A DNA stretch of 16,470 bases from an uncultured Eubacteriales bacterium (GTDB taxonomy: Bacteria > Bacillota > Clostridia > TANB77 > RGIG9151), in contig CAZXFU010000029.1 of NCBI GenBank assembly GCA_964640345.1, forward strand, positions 1 to 16,470. The letters run 5' to 3'. Positions within the stretch are counted from its first letter, which is position 1, and every line of letters starts with the position of its first letter. A program made the position numbers and the translations under genes. This document shows positions 2,774-16,470 of this stretch, one piece after another. The notes beneath the pieces were generated by a model that saw only the letters and a program-made list of their open reading frames with translations, did no database searches and had not been told where the DNA came from.

Positions 2774-3298
2774 CTATTTCAAATATTTGTCGTAAACAAG
2801 TTTACTTCTCTTAATTATCTCTTCAACATTCTCAGCATCTGCATTCTCATTTGCTTTTTCTTCGGCGTAATCAAACTGAATATCAATATTTTTTTCGCCC
2901 TTAAAATAATACCTTATCTCTCCGCCTACAGTATTAGAAACTGTCTTATACAAAGTTAACTTGTCATTTTTATCAAAAATATAAACCTGGTTTTCTAAAA
3001 AATCACTTACAAATTTTATCTCAACCATTTGCTCTCTAACTTCAACTGTAGCTGGCAATCCTTCTTCTCCCGTTTCAAAATATGCCATAAATTCTTCAAC
3101 AAGTTCGCCACCTACATCTATACCAATATTAGCGTCAAATCTCTCGCTTACCTCTTGTGCTTCAACACTTTTCGCAATCTCATTTATTTTCGAAATATTA
3201 CTACTCCTTACCCTATCAGCATCAGTCAAATAAGCAATGCCTATACCAATAATTAACAACACAATGCCAACCAATATCCAGCCAATAATTTTACGCAT
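2774..3298 (-). CDS. Hypothetical membrane-anchored protein (single N-terminal TM, acidic extracytoplasmic domain)
   Basis: 174-aa ORF with GGGAGGG 5 nt upstream of the ATG. N-terminal MRKIIGWILVGIVLLIIGIGIAYL is a signal anchor. I recognise no family. Confidence 0.7.
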   Translation of the reverse strand: MRKIIGWILVGIVLLIIGIGIAYLTDADRVRSSNISKINEIAKSVEAQEVSERFDANIGIDVGGELVEEFMAYFETGEEGLPATVEVREQMVEIKFVSDFLENQVYIFDKNDKLTLYKTVSNTVGGEIRYYFKGEKNIDIQFDYAEEKANENADAENVEEIIKRSKLVYDKYLK

Positions 3299-3387: not shown

Positions 3388-3840
3388 TTACTGAGTAATA
3401 ACTTCAGCCCCTCTCTCGGTCTTAACTGCAACGGAATCTGCCTTTATAGTCAAATATTTCATCCCATCCTCATCATACTGTTCAAGAGTGCCTATAACTT
3501 CAATCCAATCATTTTCACTAGGATATTCGCCGTCAGTATAAAATTCAAAACCACACATACTCCCATCATTTCCACAGCACCCAGGGCCACTCCTGTAAAC
3601 ATATCGATAAATCATTTTAGTCGGCTCAACATATTCCTCAGTATACATTCCTTCAATCTTAATCCGCTTTCCTAAATACGCTGAAGGATTGGTATAAATT
3701 TCATTGATATATGTCAGATACATTTTCTCTGTAATATCTAAATCAACAGAATTACCCCCACTTGTAGTAGCTACTTTGTTTGAGCAACCTGCAAATATTA
3801 TCATGCTTAAAAAAATAATGCTAAAAAGTCTCAACCTCAT
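3388..3840 (-). CDS. Lipoprotein with CCxxD motif (resembles the C-terminal domain of DUF1980/TIGR03943-type proteins), linked to the metal ABC transporter
   Basis: Lipobox MRLRLFSIIFLSMIIFAG-C. The ATG overlaps the permease stop (ATGA, 3837-3840). Motif block GKRIKIEGMYTEEYVEPTKMIYRYVYRSGPGCCGNDGSMCGFEFYTDGEYPSENDWIEVIGTL. The domain resemblance is from memory. Confidence 0.7.
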   Translation of the reverse strand: MRLRLFSIIFLSMIIFAGCSNKVATTSGGNSVDLDITEKMYLTYINEIYTNPSAYLGKRIKIEGMYTEEYVEPTKMIYRYVYRSGPGCCGNDGSMCGFEFYTDGEYPSENDWIEVIGTLEQYDEDGMKYLTIKADSVAVKTERGAEVITQ

Positions 3841-4706
3841 TCTCTATCCCCCTTACCTCTTTTAAAAATACCTTTACCAATAAGCACTCCCAAAAATGCA
3901 AAAATTACAAAGGTAATAACTTGAACAGAAACAACTGTAGCTCCTGTCTGAAAAGACTGCTTACATGCCACAAAAAATCCAATAATAAATGTCAAAACAG
4001 AAATAATCGCTGAAGTAACAACCACGCTCCAAAAACTCTTGCAAATTCTCATCGCTGACAATGCCGGAAAAACTACAAGTGCTGAAATCATTATAGCCCC
4101 CATCATTCTCATTCCGACTACCACAGTAATTGCTGTCAAAACAGCCAATAAAACATTATATACACTTACCTTTATGCCTGTAGCTCGTGAAAAATTCTCA
4201 TCAAATGTAATTGCAAAAAGTTTATGGTATGACAATGCAAATAGAACAATTGTAGCAATCGACAAAATTATACTCAAAATTAAATCTTTATCTGTAAGAG
4301 TGATAATAGACGCCGACCCAAACAAACTATTACAAATATCTGTATTTCTAGTGTCTGAAAAATTATATACTAGACTACCAAGAGCAATAGAGCCTGTAGA
4401 TACTAAAGCTAAAGCAGAATCTCCCTTTAGTTTACTATTTTCAGTCAAACGCAATAAAAAGAACGCAGTAATAATTACAACCGGTACTCCTATTTCTAAA
4501 GAATACTCCTTAAGTCCCAAAACCGTTGCAATAGCTAGTGTGCAAAATCCCACATGTGAAAGTCCGTCGCCAATCATAGAAAACCTTTTTAGTACCAAAC
4601 TGACCCCCAAAAGTGATGCACAAAGCGAGACAAGAATTCCTACAACAAGTGCCTTCACAACAATTTTAAATAAAAGCGGATTTGAAAAAATTTCACTAAT
4701 CGTCAT
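3837..4706 (-). CDS. znuB: Metal (Zn/Mn-type, ABC-3 family) ABC transporter permease
   Basis: Polytopic hydrophobic protein typical of the ABC-3/ZnuB family (LVLKRFSMIGDGLSHVGF..., GMRMMGAIMISALVVFPA). The track start 4739 overlaps the upstream ATPase gene by 32 nt. ATG 4706 (MTISEIF...) lies 1 nt after the ATPase stop with AAGGGGTG upstream, so I prefer it. Confidence 0.85.
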   Translation of the reverse strand: MTISEIFSNPLLFKIVVKALVVGILVSLCASLLGVSLVLKRFSMIGDGLSHVGFCTLAIATVLGLKEYSLEIGVPVVIITAFFLLRLTENSKLKGDSALALVSTGSIALGSLVYNFSDTRNTDICNSLFGSASIITLTDKDLILSIILSIATIVLFALSYHKLFAITFDENFSRATGIKVSVYNVLLAVLTAITVVVGMRMMGAIMISALVVFPALSAMRICKSFWSVVVTSAIISVLTFIIGFFVACKQSFQTGATVVSVQVITFVIFAFLGVLIGKGIFKRGKGDRE

Positions 4707-4707
4707 A

Positions 4708-5412
4708 CTATTCACCCCTTCCCAAAAAAGCCTTTGCAAATTTTGTTTTCATATAATCATTCCTAGTTCCATAAAACAACGGCTTATGGTATAAATGCAG
4801 AATATGACTTGCATCTTTTGTAATCATAGATACATCATGCGAAATCATAATTATCGTTATTCCGTACTTTTTATTTAATTTACTTATTAACTCATAAAGT
4901 TCTGCAGTGACAAGAGGGTCAAGACCTGCTACAGGTTCATCCAAAAGTAGTACTTTTTTTGTAGCACACAAAGCTCTTGCAAGCAACACACGTTGCTGTT
5001 GCCCGCCGGATAAATCGTGGTAGCATTTATTTTGCACATCGGTAAGTCCTAAAAGTCTCATATTGCGTTTAGCAATAACTTTATCTTCTCGCGAATAAAA
5101 TGGCTTAAATTTTGAACTATTTAATGTGCCTGATAACACAACTTCTTTAATAGAAGCAGGAAAATCCTTCTGTACAAGCGTTTGCTGTGGAATATATCCT
5201 ATCTCAGTCTGCTTTAATCCATCATTAAATTCAATACTACCCTCTTCTGGTTTTAGCAATCCTAAAATTGCTTTCATAAGCGTAGACTTCCCTGAGCCAT
5301 TTTCACCGATAATACACAGATAATCTCCTTCATTTACCTCAAAAGAAATGTCCTTTGCAACTAACCTACCATCATATGAAAGCCTTAAATTTCTACATGT
5401 TATTAGTGACAT
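4708..5412 (-). CDS. znuC: Metal ABC transporter ATP-binding protein
   Basis: Walker A GENGSGKST, ABC signature LSGGQQQRVLLARAL, Walker B LLLDEP, H-loop ISHD. Sits between the binding protein and the permease, as in B. subtilis znuA-znuC-znuB. Confidence 0.9.
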   Translation of the reverse strand: MSLITCRNLRLSYDGRLVAKDISFEVNEGDYLCIIGENGSGKSTLMKAILGLLKPEEGSIEFNDGLKQTEIGYIPQQTLVQKDFPASIKEVVLSGTLNSSKFKPFYSREDKVIAKRNMRLLGLTDVQNKCYHDLSGGQQQRVLLARALCATKKVLLLDEPVAGLDPLVTAELYELISKLNKKYGITIIMISHDVSMITKDASHILHLYHKPLFYGTRNDYMKTKFAKAFLGRGE

Positions 5413-5413
5413 A

Positions 5414-6376
5414 TTACTTAAGTACCTCCCTTAAAACATCTACATTTCTTTCCATTAGTTCTAAGTACGTAACACCATTGTTAAAATCTTCTTTAGACAC
5501 ATTATGACAAGAATGAAGTTCGGCTTTAGTGGAGCCTGTCATATTACATATAGCATCTGCCACGTTTCCGTTAGAAAATTCAGTGTATAAAACCTTTGAG
5601 ATTTTTTCGTCTTTTACCTTCTGTGCTAAGAAATTAATTGTAGCAAGGCTTGGCTCCGAATTAGAAGAACAGCCTTTAAATGCCGCATAATACTTTAAAC
5701 CGTATTGCTCAGTCAAATATCTAAAAGGAAATCTCTCGGCGAATACCAAAGTCTTAACCCTAGCGTTTTCTACAACTTCCAAAAAATCACTATCTAATTT
5801 TTCTAATTTTTTCACATATTCGCTCGCATTACTTTTGTAATATTCTGAATTCTCAACATCCAATTCACATAAAGTATCACATATCTTATTAACAATTTTT
5901 ATAGCATTTACCGGCGAAGTCCAAACATGCTCATCTACCTCATTTTCATCCTCTTCATGTTCGTTTTCGTCTTCTTCCATTCCTTCTACTTCTTCCTCTT
6001 TAAGGGTGCTAACCGCATCAATAAGCGAAATTGTTTTTAATGAAGAAGAATTAACAGTCGATAAAACATCATTAACCCATTCATCACTTTCCCCGCCAAC
6101 ATATATAAATAAGTCGCTTTTTTCAATATCACTTATATCCTGTAAAGTTGGTTCAAATCCATGTGATTCAACACCGGGAGACAAAAGCATCCTTAACTCA
6201 ACTTTATCTCCGGCTACAGCCCTGACAAAATCATATTGCGGAAAAATGGTTGCAATTACCTTTAACTTGTCCGACTCTAAATTACCGGATATTTCTTTTG
6301 TTCCACATCCGGTACTACAAAGAATTAAAAAGCACGCAAAAAAGAATACCAAAAAGGTATTAAAATTTTTTCTCAT
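5414..6376 (-). CDS. znuA: Metal ABC transporter substrate-binding lipoprotein (cluster A-I, ZnuA/AdcA-like) with acidic/His loop
   Basis: Lipobox LILCSTG-C. Candidate metal-ligand contexts ESHGFEP and DEHVWTSP. Acidic loop EEEVEGMEEDENEHEEDENEVDEH. The track start 6403 lacks an SD. ATG 6376 (MRKNF...) is 9 nt after AGGAG. Zn versus Mn specificity is not provable from sequence alone. Confidence 0.85.
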   Translation of the reverse strand: MRKNFNTFLVFFFACFLILCSTGCGTKEISGNLESDKLKVIATIFPQYDFVRAVAGDKVELRMLLSPGVESHGFEPTLQDISDIEKSDLFIYVGGESDEWVNDVLSTVNSSSLKTISLIDAVSTLKEEEVEGMEEDENEHEEDENEVDEHVWTSPVNAIKIVNKICDTLCELDVENSEYYKSNASEYVKKLEKLDSDFLEVVENARVKTLVFAERFPFRYLTEQYGLKYYAAFKGCSSNSEPSLATINFLAQKVKDEKISKVLYTEFSNGNVADAICNMTGSTKAELHSCHNVSKEDFNNGVTYLELMERNVDVLREVLK

Positions 6377-6406
6377 ATTAAGCATCTCCTTTGAAATTGA
6401 CAAATA

Positions 6407-6435
6407 ATCATAGAAGAAGCCTGTTTAATCATTAA
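6407..6435 (-). promoter_or_regulatory. Candidate internal promoter with 11-bp palindrome (Zur-box-core-like) upstream of znuA
   Basis: Minus strand: TTAATG (6430-6435), 17 nt, TATGAT (6407-6412). The palindrome TTAATGATTAA (6425-6435) overlaps the -35 and contains TAATnATTA, the core of the Firmicute Zur box as I recall it. It is short and AT-only, so chance is plausible. Confidence 0.25.
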
Positions 6436-6709
6436 TTCTAACTTTCAACTCAACCGGTAACAATTTAAAACTTCTATATCTAGTATTCTCACAATAATTT
6501 CTAATAACTTCGATTATTAACTTAAACATTAAAGCAATCAGCACCACACAGCTAAAATTCTGTACTAGATTGTATAATGTACATATAATACATCCATTAT
6601 GAACGCAGCAATGATTAAAAAATTCAAAAGAAACAGAACTTAAGGAAAATGACAATGCAAAAATAATAATTATCATCAAAACAACCAACATTCTTTTTAA
6701 CATTTTCAT
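6425..6709 (-). CDS. Small Cys-rich membrane protein, hypothetical
   Basis: 94 aa from ATG 6709 (MKMLKRMLVVLMIIIIFALSF...), preceded by AGGAGTGTGAGGAAA. Two hydrophobic segments flank FNHCCVHNGCIICTLYN, with further Cys in NFSCVV and NYCEN. Sits directly upstream of znuA. Coding status is not certain. Confidence 0.5.
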   Translation of the reverse strand: MKMLKRMLVVLMIIIIFALSFSLSSVSFEFFNHCCVHNGCIICTLYNLVQNFSCVVLIALMFKLIIEVIRNYCENTRYRSFKLLPVELKVRIND

Positions 6710-6730
6710 TTTCCTCACACTCCTTTTTAA

Positions 6731-6760
6731 AAATGATATCATTTAAAGAATAAAATTCAA
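6731..6760 (-). promoter_or_regulatory. Candidate promoter with perfect 14-bp palindrome (Fur-family-like operator) heading the metal-uptake genes
   Basis: AAATGATATCATTT (6731-6744) is a perfect palindrome. On the minus strand, TTGAAT (6755-6760), 16 nt, TATCAT (6733-6738), so the palindrome covers the -10. The half-site AATGAT/ATCATT is the core of classical Fur-type boxes. It lies in the gap between the STAS stop (6789) and ATG 6709. Confidence 0.35.
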
Positions 6761-6788: not shown

Positions 6789-7094
6789 TTATGCAATAGT
6801 CAAAACTCCCATGAATCCTGTAATCTCAAACACTTCTTTTAATGTTTTGCTAGCATTCGTGATAACTAGCTGCCCTTGCAAAGCATTAATCTTTTTCTGT
6901 GTACTAAGTAATACTCTAAGACCTGCTGAACTAAGGTATGTAACACCTGCCATATCTAACTCTAAGTTTTTAACTTCATCACTAACTAAAAGCTCTGTAA
7001 TAGCATTTTCTAGCTCCGGAGCAGTATTTGTATCAAGTTTGCCCCCTAACTTTAAAACAATTCCATCTTCATTATTCTCCCTAACAATCTCCAT
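6789..7094 (-). CDS. STAS-domain anti-sigma-factor antagonist (SpoIIAA/RsbV family)
   Basis: LKLGGKLDTNTAPELENAI...LELDMAGVTYLSSAGLRVLLSTQKKINALQGQLVITNASKTLKEVFEITGFMGVL is typical of anti-anti-sigma proteins. A Ser is conserved at the phosphorylatable position (LSSAGL versus DSSGLG). The track start is a TTG at 7115. ATG 7094 (MEIVREN...) follows GAGGAGAGGA. Confidence 0.85.
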   Translation of the reverse strand: MEIVRENNEDGIVLKLGGKLDTNTAPELENAITELLVSDEVKNLELDMAGVTYLSSAGLRVLLSTQKKINALQGQLVITNASKTLKEVFEITGFMGVLTIA

Positions 7095-7111
7095 ATTACT
7101 CAATCCTCTCC

Positions 7112-7738
7112 TCAAAGTAAAATAAACGCCAACAAATTAACTGACATATGTCCGACTAACGGTGCAAAAATGCTATTAAATCGTTCAAATAAGAAAGCAT
7201 AAAATACTGCCGATAAAAAAGCAATCATCCCCCAAATAATATTGCCATGTATAATTCCAAACAAGGTTGCTTGTAATAACCCAGCAATGTATACATTAAT
7301 ATTCTTTTTTAGCTCGCCAAACAACAACCCCCTAAAAAGTAGCTCTTCGGACATCGGAGCAAAAATCACTATAGCCAAAAATCCTATAATGCTCTTTCCG
7401 TTAGAAAAATCGCTTTCAAGAGAATTTATCATATCATTTCTCATGCCTTCTGCAAACAAAAGTTGCACACTTTGGATCACGAGATTAATAAAAAGAGTCA
7501 AACATATAATAAATAAAACACTCTTAATTGAAATTCTCCTAATTCCTAACCTCTCACTAAACTCCCACCTGAAAATCCGTGCCATCACGAACACTAAACA
7601 AATAAATATAAGTGAACTAAAAATAGTACTAAGTAATATGTCACTTGGTATAGCACTCAAAAGAAATGACTGGCAAACGCCGAACAAAATAACATACCCA
7701 AAACACTTTGCAATCGACACTATAATATTCTTTATCAA
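7112..7738 (-). CDS. CPBP family intramembrane glutamic endopeptidase (CAAX protease/Abi family)
   Basis: Polytopic protein with the three CPBP motifs: EELLFRGLLF (EExxxR), FGIIHG (FxxxH) and GHMSVNL (HxxxN). TTG start at 7738 with GAGGAGA 7 nt upstream, 2 nt after the upstream stop. Confidence 0.85.
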   Translation of the reverse strand: MIKNIIVSIAKCFGYVILFGVCQSFLLSAIPSDILLSTIFSSLIFICLVFVMARIFRWEFSERLGIRRISIKSVLFIICLTLFINLVIQSVQLLFAEGMRNDMINSLESDFSNGKSIIGFLAIVIFAPMSEELLFRGLLFGELKKNINVYIAGLLQATLFGIIHGNIIWGMIAFLSAVFYAFLFERFNSIFAPLVGHMSVNLLAFILL

Positions 7739-7740
7739 AA

Positions 7741-8532
7741 CTAAATCTCCTCTTCTTCTAAAGTAGGATAAAAATACTCATTTATAACATTATTTACCTC
7801 AGTAAGTAATTCATCATTTCCCTTTGCGACCAGTCCAACATACTCAAGCAGTTTCCAGTCTGCCAAAGTATTAATTTCTAACGTGTCAGCATTCTCGGAA
7901 ACTACATTTTCTGCCTCGTTTTTATAACAAATAACTGCATCAATATTGTATAAAAGTAATTGGTCAATCGCATTATCTAAACTCTTGTACTGCTTAATAT
8001 CCGAAGCAACACCGGATACATCACTCTTAACCAAAGAAGTAAGCGGAGTATCTGAAATAAGTGCAACTTTTTTATCTGCAAAATCATGCAAACTAAAAAT
8101 TGTAACCCCCTTATTTGTAATAACATATGGCTCTTCTTTTGCAAAAACCAACGATTGATTAACCTTAAATTTGTCACTTTCATTTTTCTCAATTTTGCCA
8201 AACGCAATATCAACACTGCCATCCGTTATTAACTCAGCAACTTCGGCACGCGACGTTTTTATAAGATTAACTTTAACAGCATTCTTCTTAACAAAGTTCC
8301 CAATAATCTGCTCTTCAATATGATATATCTTGTCGTTTTCTTTCATTGCCTCATTATTTTCAGTTCCGGTGTCCTTATTCATAAACGGATATCTGTCTGT
8401 TGAAAAAGCTATATTTACGGTTCCATCTCCACGAATTTCCTCAATCGTCCTATATGCCACTTCTTCTTTACCACAGCCAGTAACCATAAACAGAATAAAT
8501 AAAAGCGGGATAAACTTAACAAATCTTTTCAT
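7741..8532 (-). CDS. Orphan family-3 solute-binding-protein-like lipoprotein (amino-acid SBP fold)
   Basis: Lipobox LFMVTG-C. SBP_bac_3-like layout: GTVNIAFSTDRYPFMNKD..., ...LITDGSVDIAFGKIEKNESD..., ...DFADKKVALISDTPL..., ...LLLYNIDAVICYKNEAE..., ...GLVAKGNDELLTEVNNVI. No cognate permease or ATPase is adjacent. Its SD (GGAGG) overlaps the TAG stop of the upstream VirB4 gene. Confidence 0.8.
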   Translation of the reverse strand: MKRFVKFIPLLFILFMVTGCGKEEVAYRTIEEIRGDGTVNIAFSTDRYPFMNKDTGTENNEAMKENDKIYHIEEQIIGNFVKKNAVKVNLIKTSRAEVAELITDGSVDIAFGKIEKNESDKFKVNQSLVFAKEEPYVITNKGVTIFSLHDFADKKVALISDTPLTSLVKSDVSGVASDIKQYKSLDNAIDQLLLYNIDAVICYKNEAENVVSENADTLEINTLADWKLLEYVGLVAKGNDELLTEVNNVINEYFYPTLEEEEI

Positions 8533-11234: not shown

Positions 11235-13436
11235 CTACTTAGATAAAATATTCTTTTGTTCAGTCGAAAGACCAGTATTGCCACCTGTAGGCAATGATTT
11301 CGATGCACCGCCAGTCGCTTCGGACTTAACAATATTAGCCACTTCACTTGCCGCTCCGACTGCAACCTCCGCAATTCCCATCTCTGCAAGTGCAGCCTGC
11401 GGATCAATAAGTTTCATAAGCAAATTATGTGATTTAAACACCGCATAACACCCGGCAGTCAAAAGTAAAATCATAAAACCTGCATTTATAAAAGTATTTG
11501 TCGAAAAAACAACACTACCGTCAGTAACAATCGGTAAAACTATTCCTACAAATAACTTCATCATAATAACAAGTCCAAAACCAGAAACCAATTTTGCTAT
11601 AAACAATTTTCTCCAATCAGAAAATTTTTCGCACCCATCAAGTGAAATTGTCGCTGCAAAATACGGAGAAACAATAAATAACAAAATCAAATCAAAAATT
11701 CTTGTAACAAACATAATAATTGCAAGTGATAAAAGCAAAATTATGTATATACTTAAAAACAATCCGCCAATTATCTTAAAATACGAAAAATAAAAATACT
11801 CGGAAGAATCGGATGAACGTTCATATTTCGTACTGTTGTTATAAAATGAAATCCTTGCTCTATCTGTAAAAGACGGATTTTCAGAACAATCTTCATAATC
11901 TGTAGTCTCTTCCCCAAATGACAAAATCATAAACAGAGTATTACCCAAAGTCAAATTCGTTCCACTTGCATTTATCGTTATTATATCATCAATCTTAAGT
12001 AGAACAGCCGATGCAAGATTAATACTTATAATAACAAAAATCGGTACAATAGCATATGTCAAAAAGCTCTTTCCAATCTGACCCAAAATATTTCCTATTG
12101 ACTTTTCCCTATCATCAGTAAAAATTGCTCTAGTAACGCTGATTATAGCAAAAATCAAATTAAGTGCTATTCCTAAAATAAACACTCCCCAAAACACGTT
12201 TCTTATAGTAGTATCTTCAAACAACATATTTACAAAAATCGTACTAACTCCATCAACCATAATAGGTTTAGTGCCTGCAAAAATGCTAAAGATGTTCATA
12301 AGAGCATCTATAATTCTAAGCAAGAAAAGTAACGCTTCAAACATCCACATTCTTGCCCAAAATGTAACTATGTCGATATACAAGAAAAACAACTTTTCAA
12401 TAAGCCCACTTTGCTCAGTAAGCAATTTATTAAGTAACTCTAAAAACAAATCAAGAATTGGCTGAATAAGTGCATAAAGCATATTAACCAAAGTTCCAAA
12501 AGTTCCCTGCAAAGTATCAGATATCCTGTTTGACGCGTCCTCAATGCTAAGTCCAGACTCAGAATCAATATCAATATCGGCAGCAGTTTTTTCAAATTCT
12601 TCCTTAGTAAGTCGCTCAATAGGTGTTATATACTTTTCTTCAACAGTTAAAAATTCCAAATCATTCAAACTATAATGCCCATCATCATTAATAATTTCAA
12701 AATAATGCGTGCCGGCAGGTAATTCAATTTCTCCTGAAGCTTCAACATATTCCGAACTCGTTTCATTATGTTCAATGGTTGCAAGTTCTCCATTATCAAG
12801 CCTTAATACAAGTCTGTTTCCATCTGTACCTTCAAACTTACCCTTTGTAATAAATTTATATACCCCCGATTTATCCACAGCAATCTTGTAATCAACAAAA
12901 TCCCCGGGGTTCATATAAATGCTATTTTCGGAAAAAGTGCAACCGTATGATCCAAGCTTATCGCTAATAGGTATTTTCCCGGGCACAGAATTTCCACCGT
13001 TTAAGTTTCTTGTAACTAGAGAAAATTCCATATTTGAAAAATCCCAATTCTTTGCCAGTGAATGAACAGAAAGTTTATGCTTACCGGACGAAAACGATAT
13101 TGAAAAAATTATTTCTTCTTCATTCCCATCTTCATTCCAAGGTACTTTGCTCTCTTCCACAATTTTTTCTGAGTCACAATATATTTCAAATTTGCTATCA
13201 TCTTGGTATTCTTCATCTAAATTAGTAGCAAAAAACTTAAGTTCATACGTTCCGGGTACAACAACGTTTATTCCATAATCCAGCCAATCTGTTTCAGAGT
13301 TGTTTATATACCGTGATTTATGAATACTAAGGTCATAGTCGTCAGTAGCATGCGAAGAAAACGGTATACATATGAAAATTCCAAAAGTAAATGCTATAAA
13401 CATTAGCTTTTTTACTATGCTACTCAACACTATCAC
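11235..13436 (-). CDS. Secreted tandem CBM6/35-like beta-sandwich repeats fused to a polytopic membrane domain (putative VirB6/TrbL-analog T4SS channel subunit, paralog a)
   Basis: Signal peptide ...KKLMFIAFTFGIFICIPFSSHA-TDD. Two roughly 115-aa repeats share the pattern DW/F-x-DY-x-I-x-V...G-x-Y...(S/A)G-x-H...(M/L)EF. The C-terminal ~440 aa is multi-TM and paralogous to the next two ORFs (TRIFDLILLFIVSPYFAATISLDGCEKFSDWRKLFIAKLVSGFG). The start is ambiguous: GTG 13436/13430 or TTG 13427, after GGGGGTGA. That this is a real gene is near certain; the VirB6-like role is inferred from context and topology only. Confidence 0.6.
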   Translation of the reverse strand: MIVLSSIVKKLMFIAFTFGIFICIPFSSHATDDYDLSIHKSRYINNSETDWLDYGINVVVPGTYELKFFATNLDEEYQDDSKFEIYCDSEKIVEESKVPWNEDGNEEEIIFSISFSSGKHKLSVHSLAKNWDFSNMEFSLVTRNLNGGNSVPGKIPISDKLGSYGCTFSENSIYMNPGDFVDYKIAVDKSGVYKFITKGKFEGTDGNRLVLRLDNGELATIEHNETSSEYVEASGEIELPAGTHYFEIINDDGHYSLNDLEFLTVEEKYITPIERLTKEEFEKTAADIDIDSESGLSIEDASNRISDTLQGTFGTLVNMLYALIQPILDLFLELLNKLLTEQSGLIEKLFFLYIDIVTFWARMWMFEALLFLLRIIDALMNIFSIFAGTKPIMVDGVSTIFVNMLFEDTTIRNVFWGVFILGIALNLIFAIISVTRAIFTDDREKSIGNILGQIGKSFLTYAIVPIFVIISINLASAVLLKIDDIITINASGTNLTLGNTLFMILSFGEETTDYEDCSENPSFTDRARISFYNNSTKYERSSDSSEYFYFSYFKIIGGLFLSIYIILLLSLAIIMFVTRIFDLILLFIVSPYFAATISLDGCEKFSDWRKLFIAKLVSGFGLVIMMKLFVGIVLPIVTDGSVVFSTNTFINAGFMILLLTAGCYAVFKSHNLLMKLIDPQAALAEMGIAEVAVGAASEVANIVKSEATGGASKSLPTGGNTGLSTEQKNILSK

Positions 13437-15276: not shown

Positions 15277-16470
15277 TTATTTCTTCAAAATATTACCAAT
15301 AGATGACTTACTCCCCAAGCCACTTTTATTTCCAATACTACTTGTAAAATCATTTTTTAACGAATTAGACATATTATCTCCGCCACGAAACGCATTACTT
15401 CCTTTTTTATTGTTCTTACCACTATTACCGTCTTCATCTTCGCCTTTTAACACCATATTGCCAATAGATTTTCCCGCATCAAGTGCCATATTTTTAGCAT
15501 CCATAGCAAGTGTAGCCCCACCTGACGCCACTGCCTTAACAGCCACAGTACCATACTTTATTCCGGCTCTTACCGCACGAGTAGCAATTTCACTCGATAA
15601 TCCGGCTTCTTGATAAGCAGCGTTTATATTAACAATTTGAATAATAAGATTACCAGACTTATATGCAGCCCATAAACCACCTATAAGGAATAATGCTTTA
15701 ACTAGCGTATTCATAAGTGCACTGTCTGAAAAAACAACTCTGTCTGACATAACAATCGGAGAAATAATAAAGAACAATTTCATCACAATAACCATTCCAA
15801 AACCACCAAGCATTTTTGCAATAAACATTTTAACCCATTCTTTAAACTTAACCCCCCCATCAAGTACCACAGTTGCCACAAAAAATGGTGAAGTAATATA
15901 CAAAATCAGAACCTCAAATATCTTAACCACAAATACCAACGCACAAAGCACAATTATAAATATCATAACCGCACAAATAACAAACGCTAAAAAGTAATTT
16001 ATCTTTTCAATTGCAAAATCATTCATACCATCTAATGCATAATCTTTTTTACCGGATAAATATGATGCCCTTAGCTCATCGGTAAAAGTTGCATTACGAT
16101 TATATTCGTCATCCCTTGCCGCATCCATAGTAAGTGTAAGAAATGTAAGTGTTCCAAGACTTGCACTATTCTCCCCGCTTTGAGTGAGAGTAACAATTTC
16201 ACTTGTTTTCCTTAAAACAACAGATGAAAGATTAAGTAAAATTAGCGATAAGAAAGGTATCAAAAACAATGCAATCATAGCTTTAAAAGACATTCCTAAA
16301 ATCTGGCCATTAGTCTGTTTTACTTCTAAATTGCTCATATTTTTAATAATCGCAATAATTGTAAAGATAATTAAAATCGCTAATGCAATAAGCGTAACAG
16401 ACCAAAAAACTCTATTTATAACATTATTTCTGAAAAACACACTAAGTAAAAAATCTTTATTTCCATTATA
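15277..16470 (-). CDS. Polytopic membrane protein, putative VirB6/TrbL-analog (paralog c); N-terminus lies beyond the window
   Basis: The track begins it at GTG 16440, but the frame stays open to 16470. The extra residues YNGNKDFLLSVFFRNN align with paralog b NGQRSSDFLLNVFFTN, so the gene is truncated by the window. Core: VKIFEVLILYITSPFFVATVVLDGGVKFKEWVKMFIAKMLGGFG. The hydrophilic tail contains SIGN repeats. Confidence 0.6.
   Translation of the reverse strand, partial: YNGNKDFLLSVFFRNNVINRVFWSVTLIALAILIIFTIIAIIKNMSNLEVKQTNGQILGMSFKAMIALFLIPFLSLILLNLSSVVLRKTSEIVTLTQSGENSASLGTLTFLTLTMDAARDDEYNRNATFTDELRASYLSGKKDYALDGMNDFAIEKINYFLAFVICAVMIFIIVLCALVFVVKIFEVLILYITSPFFVATVVLDGGVKFKEWVKMFIAKMLGGFGMVIVMKLFFIISPIVMSDRVVFSDSALMNTLVKALFLIGGLWAAYKSGNLIIQIVNINAAYQEAGLSSEIATRAVRAGIKYGTVAVKAVASGGATLAMDAKNMALDAGKSIGNMVLKGEDEDGNSGKNNKKGSNAFRGGDNMSNSLKNDFTSSIGNKSGLGSKSSIGNILKK

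Follow-up and report, generated by a model that had tools for sequence, protein, structure and literature searches.

A conserved, selected and exported pair of domains with the fold of carbohydrate-binding module family 6 (CBM6) is fused to a VirB6-like subunit of a type IV secretion system (T4SS) in a 733-aa protein encoded by the DNA analysed here. This DNA, referred to below as the window, is a contig of 16,470 nucleotides from an uncultured Eubacteriales bacterium (CAZXFU010000029.1, assembly GCA_964640345.1). A preliminary description, made from the sequence of the window, had placed two CBM6/35-like beta-sandwich repeats behind a cleavable-looking signal peptide at positions 12642-13349 (aa 30-265) and had proposed that they form a glycan-binding ectodomain attached to a T4SS channel subunit. 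All the peptide strings that it quoted are present in the translation of the open reading frame (ORF) at 11235..13436, which is preceded by a GGGGG ribosome-binding site and is the last of three tandem VirB6-like paralogs, the sole one with the CBM pair. The parts of the protein and the neighbouring genes are listed in Table 1.

A Pfam scan of the whole protein gave a CBM_6 (PF03422) match of 40 bits over two stretches (cut-off 28.9, E-value 5.6e-10), the best of which, aa 171-249, lies in repeat 2. Scanned alone, repeat 2 reached 24.9 bits, under the 28.9 cut-off, and no CBM_6 match was listed for repeat 1; the protein-level call hence needs both copies, and the extra ~15 bits of the whole-protein score probably come from repeat 1. 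The two repeats align with each other in register, both by BLASTP (25% identity, E-value 0.006) and by hhalign of their ortholog profiles (probability 82.8%, E-value 9.3e-6, 94 columns), in agreement with the earlier statement that they repeat the same pattern. When searched against the PDB, a profile of the whole ectodomain matched the two CBM6 repeats of 8zvk (5.4e-22), with weak matches to a beta-agarase CBM6, a GH16 CBM6 and CmCBM6-2. The profile of repeat 1 found CBM6 chains alone, weakly, in register and end to end (8zvk, 0.03; beta-agarase CBM6 2cdo, 0.12).

The same fold was obtained by structure prediction. An AlphaFold2 model of aa 31-285, computed with 13 orthologs, consists of two all-beta domains with a mean predicted local distance difference test score (pLDDT) of 91.5 and a predicted template modelling score of 0.83, and repeat 1 is mostly above a pLDDT of 85. 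In Foldseek searches, the beta-sandwich of this model superposed on solved CBM6 modules, the best single-domain matches being CsCBM6-3 1o8s (template modelling score 0.78 by target, root-mean-square deviation (rmsd) 2.2 Å), CBM6E 8j3x (rmsd 3.2 Å over 130 columns) and CtGH5-CBM6 2y8k (rmsd 1.9 Å over 94 columns). Two-domain matches (Vip3, BcsB, the ColG collagen-binding domains and malectin-like receptors) have an rmsd of 13-20 Å and reflect just two beta-sandwiches in a row. In summary, the CBM6 match is far beyond chance, which bears out the proposed CBM6-type beta-sandwiches; repeat 2 is a clear CBM6 relative and repeat 1 is its divergent duplicate.

The ectodomain follows a conserved signal peptide, whose hydrophobic core reaches a peak mean hydropathy of 2.2 (19-residue window, aa 11-29). 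P25, S28 and A30 are invariant across 14 orthologs, so that the cleavable-looking signal peptide noted earlier stands. A lipoprotein was ruled out, since the signal peptide lacks a lipobox and its Cys is not kept among the orthologs. GTG/TTG codons at 2-3 codons further downstream could serve as alternative starts, and the database copy of the protein has 731 aa. Judged from hydropathy and motif conservation, aa 31-267 should be extracytoplasmic whether the signal is cleaved or kept as an anchor, as had been expected of an ectodomain outside the membrane. The tether that follows is made up of a conserved KYIxPIERLTKEE motif, an acidic segment and long amphipathic helices, and the region aa 28-364 is strongly acidic (62 D+E vs 27 K+R).

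Behind the tether, aa 360-684 score above the cut-offs of two NCBIfam models. One is NF045848, for the MMCAP2_0566 family of conjugal transfer proteins (149.2 bits, cut-off 90), and the other is NF045889, for the Mbov_0396 family of transmembrane proteins of integrative and conjugative elements (ICEs) (82.4 bits, cut-off 70). The two paralogs upstream score higher with these models than the 733-aa protein does. Hydropathy gives seven hydrophobic helices at aa 365-668, and this polytopic protein is encoded beside a VirB4 gene, so that the proposed fusion to a polytopic T4SS membrane subunit is supported. In the mycoplasma ICE, the VirB4 gene is CDS17, and CDS16, an eight-transmembrane protein, is the likely VirB6-like component (PMC12857230); disruption of CDS16 abolished or strongly reduced the transfer of ICEA (PMC6030558). 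From the adjacency of the genes, we infer that Mbov_0396 is CDS16. Since VirB6 is now viewed as a pentameric pilus platform (PMC12857230), 'channel subunit' is an outdated label; of that designation the T4SS membrane subunit stands, and the protein is better called VirB6-like. Its core has no Pfam match, sub-threshold matches to TrbL_4 (VirB6-family) were seen in 7/71 relatives scanned (best 4.4e-5), a PDB search with the family profile gave noise and did not bring up a VirB6 chain, and PHROGs gave nothing relevant for the three paralogs. There are good grounds for calling the membrane core VirB6-like, but they fall short of proof.

A search of 5.8 billion protein clusters returned 14 full-length ortholog clusters (720-734 aa, 62-100% identity) from NCBI, ENA and Logan assemblies, representing metagenome-assembled genomes (MAGs) of uncultured Clostridia. 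All 14 match PF03422 and share the architecture of signal peptide, CBM pair and core, and none of the public copies carries a name. The family was then viewed more widely with a HMMER profile, which had 1968 matches among 1.84 billion representatives at 50% identity. Among the best 150 of these, one representative, the ortholog cluster, matches from profile position 1; the other matches, except for a 282-aa core fragment, start at position ~295 or later, and what these relatives have in common with the 733-aa protein is hence the membrane core and, at the most, some of the tether helices. The other 149 are thus without the signal peptide and the CBM6 pair. No fusion of VirB6 with a carbohydrate-binding module was found described in the literature searched, in line with the earlier remark that it was not known. 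The fusion is very rare, and it is conserved.

Among GTDB species representatives there are four loci, all in uncultured Clostridia/'Eubacteriales' MAGs, one of them from Hadza gut material. Among the 180 pattern matches that the ectodomain patterns had in JGI metagenome contigs there was no relative, and the membrane core had no tblastn match in 72,556 plasmids. Many family relatives have long glycine-rich C-terminal tails without a Pfam domain, and a Pfam scan of 8 + 62 relatives with such long tails found no folded domain, with TrbL_4 in five. A few relatives have N-terminal extensions; in one of them, P0054 (1853 aa), the extension carries GLUG motifs and a Peptidase_M26_N region.

We also looked at how fast the parts of the protein change. 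Among the orthologs, the membrane core has a mean pairwise identity of 81%, against 63% in repeat 2 and 56% in repeat 1. Between the window and the orthologous locus L006, the closest pair, for which the synonymous rate (dS) is not saturated, the ratio of non-synonymous to synonymous rates (dN/dS) is 0.05 in the core and rises to 0.09 in repeat 2 and 0.13 in repeat 1, and the dN of the repeats is 3-5 times that of the core. These ratios imply that the repeats are maintained by purifying selection, and fast-changing yet selected domains are typical of exposed binding modules.

A CBM6 domain may bind sugar at more than one place. The key cleft-A residues of CtCBM6 are the aromatic pair Tyr34/Trp92 and Asn120; a second site, cleft B, exists, and CBM specificity is plastic (PMC10284105). 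The repeats were compared with cleft A by HMMER alignments to CmCBM6-2 (1uxz) and 8zvk, together with the conservation of the ortholog columns. The Tyr is retained as Y174 in repeat 2, and its counterpart in repeat 1 is Y43, as read across without gaps and not from a computed alignment. F180 of repeat 2 aligns with Trp39 of CmCBM6-2, the 'GDW' aromatic being kept as F180 in repeat 2 and as W51/W52 in repeat 1, and an invariant W100 of repeat 1 lies near the Trp92 position. Repeat 2 also has two invariant polar loops, GTDGNR (203-208) and NDDGHY (250-255), which are invariant along with Y174 and F180, and NDDGHY aligns with the CmCBM6-2 loop that bears the cleft-A Asn. A remodelled, possibly Ca2+-assisted putative site at this same end is plausible on sequence grounds. 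No paper on AaBglC (8zvk), the closest solved CBM6, from which its ligand could be learnt was found in the literature searched.

The 733-aa protein is a VirB6-like subunit with an N-terminal extension; it is part of a T4SS of the Gram-positive type and belongs to the CDS16/MMCAP2_0566 family. Its Sec signal exports the N-terminus, so that the two CBM6-fold domains sit on the outer face of the membrane, and the acidic/helical linker of ~90 residues ties the pair to the seven-helix core, which works beside VirB4. On balance, we think it probable that this exported CBM6 pair binds a glycopolymer of the cell envelope. The tandem module would be an ectodomain for such a ligand and would connect the central VirB6 platform to wall polysaccharide. 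The target could be the producer's own wall, so that the module would anchor or space the machine within a cluster in which no wall components of the VirB8-like or VirB1-like kind were seen; or it could be the wall of a contacted cell. Because the tether is short, the producer's wall or a closely apposed partner would be most reachable. Since the module is present on one of the three paralogs, it would be displayed by a mixed or specialised assembly and not by every subunit. Wall teichoic acids are known to matter for Gram-positive conjugation (PMC9324163), which supports binding of an envelope glycopolymer.

Several points weigh against this explanation. The canonical set of cleft-A residues (Tyr, Trp and Asn) does not appear to be complete: repeat 2 lacks the two-residue insertion that contains the Trp92 position, and the counterpart of the Asn is S256 in repeat 2, in a column with S/Y/D/T, and D132 in repeat 1, in a variable column (the latter again by an ungapped read-across and not a computed alignment). 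With the Trp deleted in repeat 2 and the Asn replaced, the canonical cleft-A site is not conserved. Repeat 1, unlisted by Pfam when scanned alone, seems only marginally recognisable as CBM6 by sequence. The topology is drawn from hydropathy and motif conservation, and the homology of the core to canonical VirB6/TrbL appears weak. In the full-length AlphaFold2 model the membrane core has a pLDDT below 50, at which its geometry relative to the wall is not readable. Finally, the cluster encodes a separate surface protein and a pilin (described below), in which the contact functions could lie.

These same points bear on a different role, in which the CBM6-derived domains no longer bind sugar and instead form a scaffold for protein-protein contacts on the outer face, either as a collar round the VirB6-like oligomer or as a docking site for the VirB2-like pilin or the 362-aa surface protein. 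The deleted Trp of repeat 2 and the Asn that is unconserved in both repeats speak for such a scaffold; atypical CBM6 modules without the canonical cleft-A residues are documented (PMC10284105), genes for potential docking partners lie in the same cluster, and the VirB6 pentamer is proposed as a pilus platform. What speaks for a retained ligand site is that the cleft-A Tyr and the Trp39-equivalent aromatics are kept in both repeats, and that repeat 2 has its two invariant polar/acidic loops, with NDDGHY at the position of the cleft-A Asn loop; the existence of cleft B and the plasticity of CBM specificity (PMC10284105) also speak against a scaffold without sugar binding. We consider a pure scaffold possible but doubtful.

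To place the protein in its system, we compared the orthologous loci of three genomes (L001, L006 and L007; 22-kb spans, +-10 kb), in which the gene order is identical. It begins with a protein of ~580-645 aa, an ECF-type (extracytoplasmic function) sigma factor, a 69-aa ORF, VirD4 and T4SS_pilin, continues with a surface protein of 362-366 aa, three VirB6-like paralogs and VirB4, and ends with a SBP_bac_3-like protein, a CPBP protease, a STAS protein and a protein of 173-174 aa. VirD4 (677-679 aa) lies upstream in all three loci, and the corresponding region is past the end of the window; the system thus has both VirB4, in the window, and a VirD4 coupling protein, in the orthologous loci. Known Pfam families of relaxases, integrases or transposases were not found among the called genes of these three spans, nor was there a match to a VirB8-like, VirB1-like or peptidoglycan-hydrolase family. 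The T4SS may hence not be conjugative; it may be domesticated, or it may use unrecognised components.

The surface protein of 362-366 aa, which has a signal peptide and is anchored by a transmembrane segment at its C-terminus, is a candidate for a separate surface adhesin. The preliminary description had suggested that an adhesin on the T4SS subunit itself would replace a separate one such as PrgB; this idea is weakened by the presence of the surface protein and T4SS_pilin in the orthologous loci. As for the surface-adhesin reading itself, the exported CBM6 pair on the subunit remains, and the missing cleft-A Trp and Asn and the lack of a relaxase within 10 kb count against it. As an observation on the cluster, the pilin and the surface protein of L001 fit a recent proposal of VirB2-like pili in Gram-positive T4SSs. 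The protein of ~580-645 aa, whose orthologs lie at the 5' edge of L006 and L007, has a kinase fold by weak matches of the L001 copy (Table 1) and could be a T4SS substrate or regulator. The SBP_bac_3-like, CPBP protease and STAS genes always follow VirB4, with the ECF-type sigma factor at the opposite end of the cluster, an arrangement that looks like a dedicated regulatory or processing module of the T4SS.

A narrower version of the envelope-glycan explanation, in which the T4SS is chromosomal and relaxase-less and the lectin pair of the VirB6-like paralog targets a glycan of the partner-cell envelope beside a VirB2-like pilus, the platform thus having its own targeting device for contact-dependent transfer, seems unlikely to us in that specific form. 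Quite improbable, in our view, is that the domains are a true lectin for host mucin or dietary polysaccharide on a fixed, relaxase-less T4SS that was co-opted from conjugation, for instance for contact-dependent export or colonisation. A short-tethered module of two domains would be unlikely to reach past a Gram-positive wall, and no datum points to such a ligand. Much of the genomic context would suit a co-opted system: the lack of a relaxase or integrase match in three genomes, the identical gene order across species, the flat guanine + cytosine (GC) content of T4SS and housekeeping genes without a tRNA, the regulators that flank the cluster (ECF-type sigma factor upstream, STAS downstream) and the kinase-fold protein encoded upstream, together with MAGs that point to gut sources, such as the Hadza sample, and the precedent of relaxase-poor T4SSs co-opted in Patescibacteria (PMC12102498). 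A relaxase may, however, sit further away or be of an unrecognised type. That the resemblance is due to chance, that an assembly or gene-calling error joined two genes, or that the region is cytoplasmic is barely credible: Pfam misses repeat 1 alone, but the family, profile and structure matches are significant, the same single ORF of 720-734 aa recurs in 14 independent clusters (NCBI, ENA and Logan), on which ground a gene-fusion artefact was rejected, and dN/dS is ~0.1 with a conserved signal peptide.

Extended VirB6 proteins and T4SS adhesins are already known, and what is new here is an N-terminal, Sec-exported extension with a lectin-type fold. F-plasmid TraG is one such extended VirB6 protein, and the VirB6 paralogs of Rickettsiales and the MPF_FA VirB6 homologs (700-900 aa) likewise join a core to hydrophilic domains, sometimes in multiple paralogs. 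In known VirB6 proteins the extensions lie in the middle or at the C-terminus and are for the most part unstructured or unassigned, and the function of these extra domains is stated as unknown (PMC12857230); here, in contrast, the extension is N-terminal and exported and has a recognisable fold. With CDS16/Mbov_0396 of the mycoplasma ICE and MMCAP2_0566, the 733-aa protein shares the C-terminal ~320 aa, which are polytopic, and the location of the gene directly upstream of a Mbov_0397-type VirB4. It differs in its host, a spore-forming member of the Clostridia instead of a wall-less mollicute, in the presence of three tandem paralogs, and in the added signal peptide and CBM6 domains. P0054 was the one other protein found in which the same core bears an N-terminal extension that can be recognised as of the surface-protein type; the protein is far larger, and its domains are of a different type and without sequence relation to the CBM6 pair. 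It shows that the VirB6-like family tolerates N-terminal ectodomain fusions.

The CBM6 modules of glycoside hydrolases (8zvk AaBglC, CsCBM6-3 1o8s, CmCBM6-2 1uxz and beta-agarase 2cdo) share the Pfam family and fold with the repeats, as well as the cleft-A Tyr and the 'GDW/F' aromatic, and in AaBglC they stand in tandem as here. The 733-aa protein has no catalytic partner and no cleft-A Trp/Asn, and it has its own GTDGNR and NDDGHY loops. PrgB of pCF10 and the CDS14 lipoprotein of the mycoplasma ICE are also surface-exposed and T4SS-associated and are thought to act in donor-recipient contact (PMC12857230, PMC6030558). They are separate polypeptides with LPXTG or lipid anchors, whereas the putative binding module here lies inside a membrane subunit.

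In the window, the VirB4 gene starts 24 nt downstream of the 733-aa ORF, and its product matches the Mbov_0397-type model NF045975 from end to end with 586 bits, just below the cut-off of 590. Its N-terminus (aa ~17-62) has two hydrophobic helices that are also covered by the mycoplasma VirB4_plasma model, which suggests a fused VirB3-like membrane anchor. Paralog 2 has no signal peptide, CBM or Pfam match, and its long C-terminal tail is S/N/G-rich, with repeated 'IGSHR' and 'W-x-NG' motifs. The reading frame of paralog 1 is open up to the edge of the window, and its full-length ortholog has 533-553 aa (549 aa in L001). Beyond the STAS gene, a znuABC-type cluster with two small ORFs (a 150-aa lipoprotein-like ORF and a Cys-rich 105-aa membrane ORF) separates STAS from a 174-aa gene at 2774-3298, the ortholog of the 173-174 aa gene (54% identity); these two genes are adjacent in the other genomes. 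SigK and an S1-domain gene follow past it, and the intact SigK gene implies that the host, a member of the Clostridia, forms spores. The GC content is flat across the window (31-35%), in T4SS and housekeeping genes alike, and the window has no tRNA; hence the cluster has the look of a chromosomal locus that has long been resident in a spore-former. A link of the contig to gut conjugative megaplasmids (PMC12934698) was considered and could not be made.

Table 1. Features of the 733-aa protein, of the other genes in the window and of the orthologous locus L001
Feature	Coordinates	Strand	Basis or remarks
733-aa protein gene	11235..13436	minus	
Signal peptide, aa 1-30 (MIVLSSIVKKLMFIAFTFGIFICIPFSSHA-TDD)	13347..13436	minus	KK n-region, hydrophobic core, S-x-A motif
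Repeat 1, CBM6-like beta-sandwich, aa 31-146	12999..13346	minus	divergent copy
Repeat 2, CBM6 beta-sandwich, aa 147-267	12636..12998	minus	
Tether, aa 268-360	12357..12635	minus	ortholog alignment; low-confidence helices in full-length AlphaFold2 model
Polytopic membrane core, VirB6-like, aa 361-684	11385..12356	minus	NCBIfam NF045848, NF045889
C-terminal tail, aa 685-733, and stop codon	11235..11384	minus	
Paralog 2, VirB6-like family, 597 aa	13461..15254	minus	NF045848, 211 bits
Paralog 1, VirB6-like family	15277..16470	minus	NF045848, 193 bits; 5' part cut by contig end
VirB4-type T4SS ATPase, 888 aa	8544..11210	minus	NF045975 VirB4_plasma; Pfam P-loop_TraG, DUF87, AAA_10
SBP_bac_3-like protein	7741-8532	minus	Pfam/NCBIfam
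CPBP/Rce1-like intramembrane protease	7112-7738	minus	Pfam/NCBIfam
STAS anti-sigma-factor antagonist	6789-7115	minus	Pfam/NCBIfam
znuABC-type metal ABC transporter (ZnuA/ZnuC/ZnuB-like) and two small ORFs	3388-6742		
Sporulation sigma factor SigK, intact	1929-2639	minus	above NCBIfam cut-off
Protein of ~580-645 aa	L001 135-1877		weak matches to Fam20C (8.5e-5) and PI3/PI4-kinase; DRHGGN...DND motif
T4SS_pilin, 104-105 aa	L001 4914-5231		PF18895, 1.2e-9
Protein of 362-366 aa (362 aa in L001)	L001 5335-6423		signal peptide and C-terminal transmembrane anchor

The finding bears on what the additional domains of extended VirB6 proteins do (PMC12857230), and on how Gram-positive T4SSs pass through or engage with the thick wall. 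The extension described here is a small, soluble ligand-binding fold with a high-confidence AlphaFold model, which makes it testable. The fusion is confined to a few uncultured species and comes as a mild surprise for a T4SS specialist; should the module not bind sugar, it would be a minor curiosity of domain shuffling in these species. If it does bind a wall glycopolymer, a core T4SS subunit could itself carry envelope recognition, which would then not be left to separate adhesins, and the module would provide a handle on a poorly known T4SS lineage that is common to Clostridia and mollicutes.

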